Shown: one piece after another, positions 27,009 to 27,572 of the stretch
Layout of the letters: each line of letters opens with the position of its first letter
Numbering within the stretch: position 1 is the first letter of the stretch
DNA from: Escherichia coli
GTDB lineage: Bacteria > Pseudomonadota > Gammaproteobacteria > Enterobacterales > Enterobacteriaceae
DNA: 64,000 nucleotides
Strand: one strand, 5' to 3'
Assembly (NCBI RefSeq): GCF_003790525.1
Contig: NZ_CP033634.1
The notes under the pieces: generated by a model
Database searches by the model: none
What the model saw: only the letters and a program-made list of their open reading frames with translations
What the model was told of the DNA's origin: nothing
Program-made: the position numbers and the translations under genes

Positions 27009-27572
27009 ATGCACAGTCAGTTAAGAGAACGTATCCGGCTGATGCGCGCAAGGCTGGATAACGCCGCGCCGGTTGCTGAAATCCGGGCTGAATCTCAGCT
27101 TTTTGTGACTCCTGCCCCGGTCTGTGATCGCCTGGTGACGCTGGCGGAAATCAGCAACCGTGATCACATTCTGGAACCCTCTGCCGGCACCGGGGCCATA
27201 CTGCTGGCGATTCGGGATACCGCGCCGGAGGCCATGTGTGATGCGGTGGAGATTAACAGCGGGCTGGTCCGGTATCTGCGGGAAAATTTTAACGGTGTCA
27301 GGGTACAGTGTGGCGACTTCATGGAATGGCAGCCGGTGCAGTATTACAGCCGGATCATTATGAATCCGCCGTTCAGTCACGGGCAGGATATCCGGCATAT
27401 CCTGCGGGCTTTTTCCCTGTTGCGTCCGGGGGGCGTTCTGGTTGCCGTCTGTCTCAACGGGCCGCGCCAGCAGGAGAAGCTGTTACCGTTTTCTGACGTC
27501 CGCGAGGAGCTGCCGCGCGGCACGTTTGCTTATACCGATGTCCCGACGATGATTATTCGTTTGCGTGCCTGA
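27009..27572 (+). CDS. Class I SAM-dependent methyltransferase with NPPF motif (putative second orphan DNA/RNA amino-methyltransferase)
   Basis: ILEPSAGTGAIL (motif I) and IIMNPPFSHG (motif IV NPPF). Confidence 0.75.
   Translation: MHSQLRERIRLMRARLDNAAPVAEIRAESQLFVTPAPVCDRLVTLAEISNRDHILEPSAGTGAILLAIRDTAPEAMCDAVEINSGLVRYLRENFNGVRVQCGDFMEWQPVQYYSRIIMNPPFSHGQDIRHILRAFSLLRPGGVLVAVCLNGPRQQEKLLPFSDVREELPRGTFAYTDVPTMIIRLRA

Follow-up and report, generated by a model that had tools for sequence, protein, structure and literature searches.

The ydbA-ydcA gene pair of an IncF-type plasmid leading region as a candidate split DUF3560-methyltransferase

The window analyzed here is a stretch of 64,000 nucleotides (nt) of Escherichia coli DNA (contig NZ_CP033634.1, assembly GCF_003790525.1), which represents an IncF-type plasmid and its leading region. 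We focus on ydcA, an open reading frame (ORF) of 187 amino acids (aa), and on the DUF3560 gene ydbA directly upstream (Table 1). ydcA starts with ATG, 8 nt downstream of a GGAG Shine-Dalgarno sequence, and its end in the ORF list includes the stop codon. The protein carries the motifs QLFVTP (residues 30-35), EPSAGTG (56-62), NPPF (119-122) and LPRGTFAYTDVPT (168-180). An alignment of 25 full-length homologues, with identities down to 51%, retains the order FxTP, motif I, NPPF and LPxGxFxxxxVxT across the family, and residues E56, P57, G60, T61, G62, N119, P121, F122 and F173 are invariant. The Pfam family MTS (PF05175) scores 32.4 bits over residues 50-149, above its cut-off of 23 (expected value, E, 8.8e-8). 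A 90%-clustered protein set holds 395 homologues, many of them 187-188 aa long and encoded on Enterobacterales plasmids, with identities down to ~50%. ydcA is a real, selected gene and its reading frame is well beyond chance. An earlier note, made from the same DNA, had described a 187-aa protein with EPSAGTG and NPPF motifs as resembling an S-adenosylmethionine (SAM)-dependent amino-methyltransferase, and as the second leading-region methyltransferase, of a class distinct from a DPPY-type methylase at 20840. All of these descriptions proved accurate. The gene at 20840..21523 encodes a beta-class methyltransferase of 227 aa with DPPY at residue 27 and a match to PF01555 (N6_N4_Mtase, E 4e-39).

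Distant relatives of YdcA are mostly not free-standing enzymes. A profile built from 25 YdcA homologues and run against 1.84 billion representative proteins recovered 15,314 representatives at E <= 1e-3, including 521 at E <= 1e-30. Most of the top relatives are proteins of 580-730 aa with the methyltransferase at the C-terminus and an N-terminal region of ~430 aa homologous to YdbA. YdbA served as the query for a second comparison, covering the 135 representatives newly retrieved within the best 150 of the 15,314. Homology to YdbA at the N-terminus was found in 80 of these 135 (E down to 1e-143, spanning YdbA residues ~25-458), and in nearly all of those with at least 560 aa (49 of 51). Of the 135, 133 contain the NPPF motif and 17 have 215 aa or fewer. 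One fusion of 646 aa is collinear (~47% identity) with adjoining DUF3560 and methyltransferase genes, as seen in no fewer than 4977 of the 5000 plasmid records with the best scores. Precomputed Pfam assignments likewise place PF12083 and PF05175 together on P0145, P0130 and P0164.

The position of the split can be located in the alignment of joined YdbA and YdcA with 16 fusions. YdbA ends at a conserved V(Y/F)ITDxK..PP, where the fusions go on with a variable proline-rich linker, and the N-terminal helix of YdcA matches a conserved helix preceding QLFPTP in the fusions. The spacer between ydbA and ydcA corresponds to this variable linker. We interpret the enterobacterial gene pair as the split form of the fusion family, created by fission at the interdomain linker. 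The split is stable, because both halves are conserved across thousands of plasmids. Since YdcA has no target-recognition domain and is fused to a YdbA homologue in most distant relatives, the functional unit is very probably ydbA together with ydcA. The designation of ydcA as an orphan methyltransferase in the earlier note is therefore apt only in part. No restriction endonuclease or HsdS was found near ydcA among the annotated neighbors and the Pfam-scanned proteins of the window, and the adjoining genes are orf76, the DUF3560 gene and ssb, a negative limited by the unknown function of YdbA. The protein, however, does not look self-contained.

Outside Enterobacterales, the single-chain protein of 650-690 aa occurs in comparable surroundings. 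A natural fusion (WP_183148361) is encoded on a Denitratisoma MOBF/MPF_F plasmid among ssb, DUF932, kleA and radC genes. Further fusions come from elements in metagenomes, where they are accompanied by RadC, resolvase, integrase and excisionase genes. A joint spread of DUF3560 and the methyltransferase in phages was considered and rejected, given just four weak phage records. DUF3560 is thus nearly absent from phages, which makes it a partner specific to conjugative elements. The small gene orf76 was likewise rejected as part of the conserved unit, as five other loci with the fused genes have no homologue of it next to them. Orf76 is a protein of 76 aa with an isoelectric point (pI) of 11.9 and a weak, sub-threshold HU-like Pfam match (E 7e-4).

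The genes orf76, ydbA and ydcA lie between two copies of a repeat. Three direct repeats of ~650 nt were found in the window, namely copies A and B of Table 1 and a third at 33191-33764. All three share 85-94% identity, over ~430-490 nt, with two regions of the F plasmid, one directly upstream of ssb and one at about 64 kb in the F record, upstream of the operon called ygeA in papers. The single-strand promoters Frpo2 and Frpo1 have been mapped to these two regions. Positions 24649-25077 of copy A share 93.5% identity over 430 nt with the F region that directly precedes ssb (Frpo2), and 85% with the second F copy. The minus strand of copy A (24640-25110) is predicted to fold into an imperfect hairpin of ~320 nt (-138.5 kcal/mol, z = -10.6). 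Homology suggests that copy A is a promoter, which would act in its hairpin form when the transferred strand is single-stranded. An origin of transfer (oriT) nick sequence of the F type, GTAGTGTGTGGTGCTTTT, lies at 35897-35914 on the minus strand, with two mismatches to the F nick region. It falls at the 5' end of an SLT gene (35305..35907, minus strand), upstream of traM. The nick-like sequence is on the minus strand, therefore the minus strand is the transferred strand and the template of every plus-strand gene in the region. ydcA enters ~8.3-8.9 kb behind this site. The gene thus has the sequence layout of genes under class 1 (Frpo/ssi) promoters, being templated by the transferred strand and lying downstream of a Frpo-homologous hairpin.

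Table 1. Features at the ydbA-ydcA locus, in window coordinates
Feature	Position	Strand	Basis
KlcA/ArdB-type antirestriction gene	23197		
Frpo-type (class 1) single-strand promoter, copy A, upstream of orf76-ydbA-ydcA (putative)	24439..25101	-	Homology and predicted hairpin
orf76, small basic protein, first gene of the module behind copy A	25319..25549	+	ORF list; hypothetical protein in RefSeq homologues
ydbA, DUF3560 protein, 453 aa, proposed non-catalytic partner or targeting subunit	25601..26962	+	PF12083, E 5e-37
ydbA-ydcA spacer, 46 nt	26963..27008	+	GC-rich hairpin 26970-26991; GGAG 26997-27000
ydcA, methyltransferase catalytic core	27009..27572	+	Motifs, Pfam, homologues, structure model
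Frpo-type promoter, copy B, upstream of ssb, at the downstream edge of the module (putative)	27769..28430	-	Repeat homology

The distance from the start of copy A to the start of copy B is 3330 nt, which is exactly one module plus one repeat. The F plasmid and the IncI1 prototype ColIb-P9 do not carry orf76-ydbA-ydcA and have a single repeat at this place, one copy fewer. The spacing is consistent with recombination between repeats, and the missing copy in F and ColIb-P9 suggests the same, so that the 3.33-kb module might be gained or lost in this way. No convincing double-strand promoter or terminator was detected between copy A, orf76, ydbA and ydcA. Matches were at chance level, and an internal promoter or terminator separating ydbA from ydcA was rejected on these grounds. 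The spacer contains a GC-rich hairpin, CCCCCCGGG-AAAT-CCCCGGGGG, just 5' of the ydcA ribosome-binding site. The hairpin has no T-run, hence it is not a terminator, and could be an element for processing, stability or translational coupling.

YdcA and YdbA were each modeled as a single chain with AlphaFold2. The YdcA model (predicted local distance difference test, pLDDT, 87) begins with a poorly packed helix (3-17) and a disordered stretch, followed by T34-P35 capping helix 36-46. The core is a complete seven-stranded class I methyltransferase fold running from beta-1 (53-57) to beta-7 (180-186 of 187). The last strand ends at residue 186, which leaves no room for a target-recognition domain. 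The YdbA model (pLDDT 87) starts with a small alpha/beta domain, continues with very long helices at 88-212, corresponding to the Pfam DUF3560 region, and at 266-304, and is rich in beta structure in its C-terminal third. Residues 86-215 have a pI of 10.2 and residues 306-453 a pI of 9.3. The ydbA frame is open from 25583, which would give 459 aa. PADLOC models returned no match to YdbA.

Several lines of evidence point to DNA as the substrate of YdcA. A sequence search of solved structures found M.TaqI as the best match (E 2.4e-5), with an alignment that extends from the TP motif to NPPY. PHROGs matches (E 3e-32 to 1e-20) are methyltransferase domains inside giant phage proteins, with several families named DNA methyltransferase, a label that is itself a prediction. 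Annotations of the phage relatives include DarB-like antirestriction, structural and PLxRFG proteins and a "DNA methylase subunit" of 2740 aa. These giant proteins are DarB-like and presumably injected. We also observed the same methyltransferase clade in Shewanella phage X14 (1-7840) and other phages, within proteins of 1,200-3,900 aa beside tail or structural genes. Among PADLOC models, Mad2 of the MADS system matches YdcA residues 28-185 (E 1e-20), followed by type II and orphan methyltransferase models (1e-11 to 1e-8). The methyltransferases of phage polyvalent proteins have been described as EcoKI/TaqI-like adenine enzymes with a TP-capped helix and NPP(Y/F) (Iyer et al. 2017, PMC5512222). 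YdcA has both features, with T34-P35 before helix 36-46 and beta-1, and NPPF. The gamma-class order of motifs X (TP), I, IV (NPPY/F) and VIII is likewise found. The gamma-class target-recognition domain or HsdS-type subunit is absent, with a DUF3560 partner proposed instead, and scores remain under the Pfam thresholds for gamma-class DNA methylases (N6_Mtase, Eco57I). Because of the TP-capped helix and NPPF shared with the Iyer clade, the phage and defense profile matches and the genomic context, we consider N6 of DNA adenine the probable target. The M.EcoGIX family (beta-class) was rejected as a home for ydcA, which has no PF01555 match, and its description fits the 20840 gene instead.

ydcA DNA is present in at least 5000 PLSDB plasmids. 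Among 5426 complete E. coli genomes, 2770 (51%) carry the gene, nearly always on a plasmid. ydcA is a long-annotated and already known gene, and a methyltransferase is an ordinary kind of plasmid gene. In Supplementary Table 1 of Samuel & Burstein 2024, ORF position 11 is taken by a family of 1957 members that is enriched in leading regions and labeled adenine-specific DNA methyltransferase (K07317), with 401 members labeled Erm (KEGG 23S rRNA dimethyltransferase). The DUF3560/YdbA family follows at position 12 with 1913 members. Judged by position and mixture of labels, the 1957-member family is very probably ydcA, so the gene and its reading as a methyltransferase are already in the literature at the level of annotation. 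A literature search for functional work on ydbA, ydcA and DUF3560 returned annotation-level mentions only. A gonococcal mutant named ydbA has no DNA-secretion phenotype, and its homology to the plasmid ydbA is not verified. The discovery value of ydcA itself is incremental, given that the gene, its motifs and its enrichment in leading regions are already in databases and literature. What is added here is likewise incremental: the split-gene relationship, a third Frpo copy dedicated to this module and the finding that model plasmids lack it.

We suggest, with slightly better than even confidence, that ydbA and ydcA encode a split DUF3560-methyltransferase that is expressed transiently from a Frpo-type promoter and reduces restriction through gamma-type adenine methylation of the incoming plasmid, probably with relaxed specificity. 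The transferred minus strand would enter the recipient, and the hairpin of copy A would form on the single strand and recruit host RNA polymerase. Given the 93% identity to the F Frpo2 region, orf76-ydbA-ydcA would then be transcribed for a short time, up to the synthesis of the complementary strand. YdcA would act as a minimal gamma-class (EcoKI/TaqI-like) core that binds SAM via EPSAGTG, E81 and D103-F104 and takes the flipped adenine into a pocket of NPPF and F173. YdbA might assemble with YdcA and recreate the single-chain protein, with the basic coiled-coil and beta-rich regions of YdbA supplying nucleic-acid binding or targeting. The complex would place N6-methyl groups on adenines of the incoming DNA and weaken the effect of restriction in the recipient, in addition to the M.EcoGIX homologue at 20840 and the KlcA/ArdB-type protein. 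Pre-protection of plasmid DNA, as proposed in the earlier note, fits the published view of orphan methyltransferases in leading regions, where such genes are enriched (PMC11541004, PMC7736820).

A broader interpretation is that YdbA-YdcA and the fused relatives form a distinct anti-restriction class specific to conjugation. DUF3560 would load the enzyme on the entering single strand or nascent duplex, and largely sequence-independent methylation would give broad protection. Under this interpretation, the class could have been missed so far despite its presence in about half of sequenced E. coli strains, because F and ColIb-P9 lack the module. We regard this extension as tentative and rather doubtful.

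A number of observations weigh against the proposed split DNA methyltransferase. The top NCBIfam matches of YdcA are Erm (33.4 bits, E 2.9e-8, cut-off 212) and KsgA (30.2 bits, 2.6e-7, cut-off 171), and PrmC/HemK models match at E 7e-7 to 8e-5, with PrmC at 29 bits against a cut-off of 199. Pfam N6_Mtase (PF02384) reaches 14.3 bits against a cut-off of 20.4 and covers residues 32-70 only. Eco57I (PF07669) was not reported for YdcA. The Pfam placement is the generic MTS only, which does not fix the substrate. Among 41 fusion proteins, MTS is found in 40, and RrnaAD (16) and N6_Mtase (13) are about equally frequent. The top matches of the YdcA fold search are mixed as well, and altogether neither Pfam and NCBIfam nor the fold search tells a DNA substrate from an RNA substrate. 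No clade member with a measured substrate was found in the literature. YdbA has no informative solved-structure match and no recognizable DNA-binding fold, and the physical complex with YdcA is a proposal from the fusion relationship. The published zygotic-induction datasets used F and pESBL. They say nothing direct on orf76-ydbA-ydcA, because the module is missing from F, as it is from the IncI1 prototype ColIb-P9. Published early-conjugation transcriptomes were rejected as expression evidence for this reason. Early expression of the module is hence suggested by promoter homology.

The scores above bear most directly on the possibility that YdcA is an RNA amino-methyltransferase. Such an enzyme would produce N6-methyladenosine (m6A) or N2-methylguanosine (m2G) in host rRNA, tRNA or plasmid transcripts, in the manner of METTL5/PH1948, Erm/KsgA or RsmC, with YdbA as an adaptor like TRMT112. 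The ranking of Erm and KsgA at the top of NCBIfam agrees with this alternative, as does MTS, an RsmC-type family, as the sole Pfam family above its cut-off. RrnaAD reaches 20.6 bits (cut-off 24), the fusion-family profile matches Dim1 (2.6e-8) level with TaqI (3.5e-8), and the Erm labels in the family table of Samuel et al. point in the same direction. All scores for RNA families are, however, far under curated cut-offs, and the fold stops at beta-7 without the C-terminal helical RNA-binding domain of Erm and KsgA. An assignment to these rRNA dimethyltransferases was rejected accordingly. Much stronger matches are to mobile-element domains annotated as DNA methyltransferase. The family is found almost wholly in conjugative-element or phage entry contexts, near ssb, antirestriction genes and radC, and the TP-capped helix is a signature of the EcoKI/TaqI clade. 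The earlier note had left room for an RNA target and held that best matches to rRNA or protein methyltransferases would speak against DNA activity. NCBIfam does rank Erm, KsgA and PrmC first, far below their cut-offs, and PHROGs, PADLOC and M.TaqI favor the DNA side. We retain the RNA enzyme as a rival that is unlikely and yet the strongest of those considered.

Somewhat less likely is the view of the earlier note that YdcA is a free-standing orphan DNA methyltransferase. YdbA would in that case be just a neighbor of unrelated function. The 187-aa form has its own ribosome-binding site and start codon and is conserved in thousands of plasmids, and the 17 representatives of 215 aa or fewer likewise favor this view. 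Small non-specific adenine methyltransferases of mobile elements such as M.EcoGII provide a precedent. Against a stand-alone enzyme, YdcA is without a target-recognition domain, and the 135 distant relatives examined most often have the methyltransferase fused to a YdbA homologue. Adjacency of the two genes is near-universal in the plasmid records, and the two families of Samuel et al. are nearly equal in size and occupy consecutive positions. A role in plasmid establishment (a strand mark for mismatch repair, complementary-strand synthesis or promoter shut-off), methylation of a host protein in the manner of PrmC/HemK, or a non-catalytic function is the least probable of the rivals, since the PrmC/HemK matches, the link of M.EcoGIX activity to replication mode (PMC7736820) and a neighboring YfjB/HerB-type protein that reprograms host transcription instead of acting in counter-defense (PMC13370423) are set against a PrmC score far under its cut-off, the antirestriction factor DarB as archetype of the clade, the lack of specific evidence for a regulatory target and catalytic residues whose invariance across the family makes a non-catalytic role unlikely.

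Most carriers of ydbA-ydcA are conjugative resistance or virulence plasmids. If the split methyltransferase does modify incoming DNA, it would be among the commonest counter-restriction devices of clinical plasmids. Its action beside the M.EcoGIX homologue and KlcA would bear on the question of why restriction is a weak barrier to the spread of IncF plasmids. Experimentally, ydbA and ydcA are best treated as one unit, on a plasmid that carries the module, such as pS88, which excludes F and ColIb-P9.

The surrounding leading region contains, in order, parM, the DPPY methylase, DUF1380, the KlcA/ArdB-type antirestriction gene, a second DUF1380 gene, orf76, ydbA, ydcA, ssb and DUF905. Beyond DUF905 follow a gene for a 652-aa ParB-like protein, psiB, psiA, hok, DUF932, the SLT gene and traM. 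The 652-aa protein (29329-31287) is homologous to YfjB of F, which was renamed HerB in a July 2026 preprint that reported binding to the recipient chromosome and reprogramming of host transcription (PMC13370423). At the 5' edge of copy B there is a perfect (CTGCTA)x5.8 tandem tract (27752-27786), which may be variable in length. An identical 1601-nt query matches 1601 nt or 1613 nt depending on the plasmid, a difference of 12 nt for which the indel was not located. RefSeq poly-leucine "hypothetical proteins" over the repeat, such as 27572..27808, look spurious.

Comparison with known systems places YdcA near several enzymes without a full match to any. METTL5-TRMT112 and PH1948 are small partner-dependent m6A RNA methyltransferases with 16-24% identity to YdcA. 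They are cellular rRNA enzymes without a mobile-element or entry-region context, and TRMT112 is unrelated to DUF3560. M.TaqI has a C-terminal recognition domain and HsdM has HsdS and an N-terminal helical domain, whereas YdcA has neither and falls below the N6_Mtase gathering cut-off. A system close in terms of setting is M.EcoGIX with M.BceJIV, plasmid leading-region orphan methyltransferases that are specific for m6A on single strands (Fomenkov et al. 2020, PMC7736820). The 20840 gene of the window is a homologue of this family (PMC12672017, PMC7736820). M.EcoGIX and YdcA share the early-transferred region of IncI1/IncF-type plasmids, transcription off the entering strand and the lack of a partner endonuclease. 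Entry protection has been shown for M.EcoGIX, on pESBL (PMC7736820), and is proposed for YdcA. The two differ in architecture. M.EcoGIX is a beta-class enzyme with DPPY, PF01555 and motif IV before motif I, whereas YdcA is gamma-type with motif I before NPPF, a TP motif and no PF01555 match, and is a bare core paired or fused with DUF3560. The M.EcoGIX homologues of F and pESBL have also been assigned a separate "class 3" single-strand promoter in the literature. DarB-type domains (Iyer et al. 2017, PMC5512222), as in DarB of phage P1, are close in terms of clade, and like YdcA, as proposed here, they are deployed at DNA entry. YdcA residues 32-182 align to P1 DarB 91-267 with an identical LEPSAGTG and with LPTGTF as motif VIII in DarB, at a pairwise identity of only 23%. 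DarB-type domains share one chain with LPD36 and SNF2 helicase modules, and the virion delivers them as finished protein. A helicase is missing from YdcA, which would be made de novo in the recipient and has DUF3560 as its likely partner. Phages thus couple the same methyltransferase clade to helicases, and conjugative elements couple it to DUF3560.

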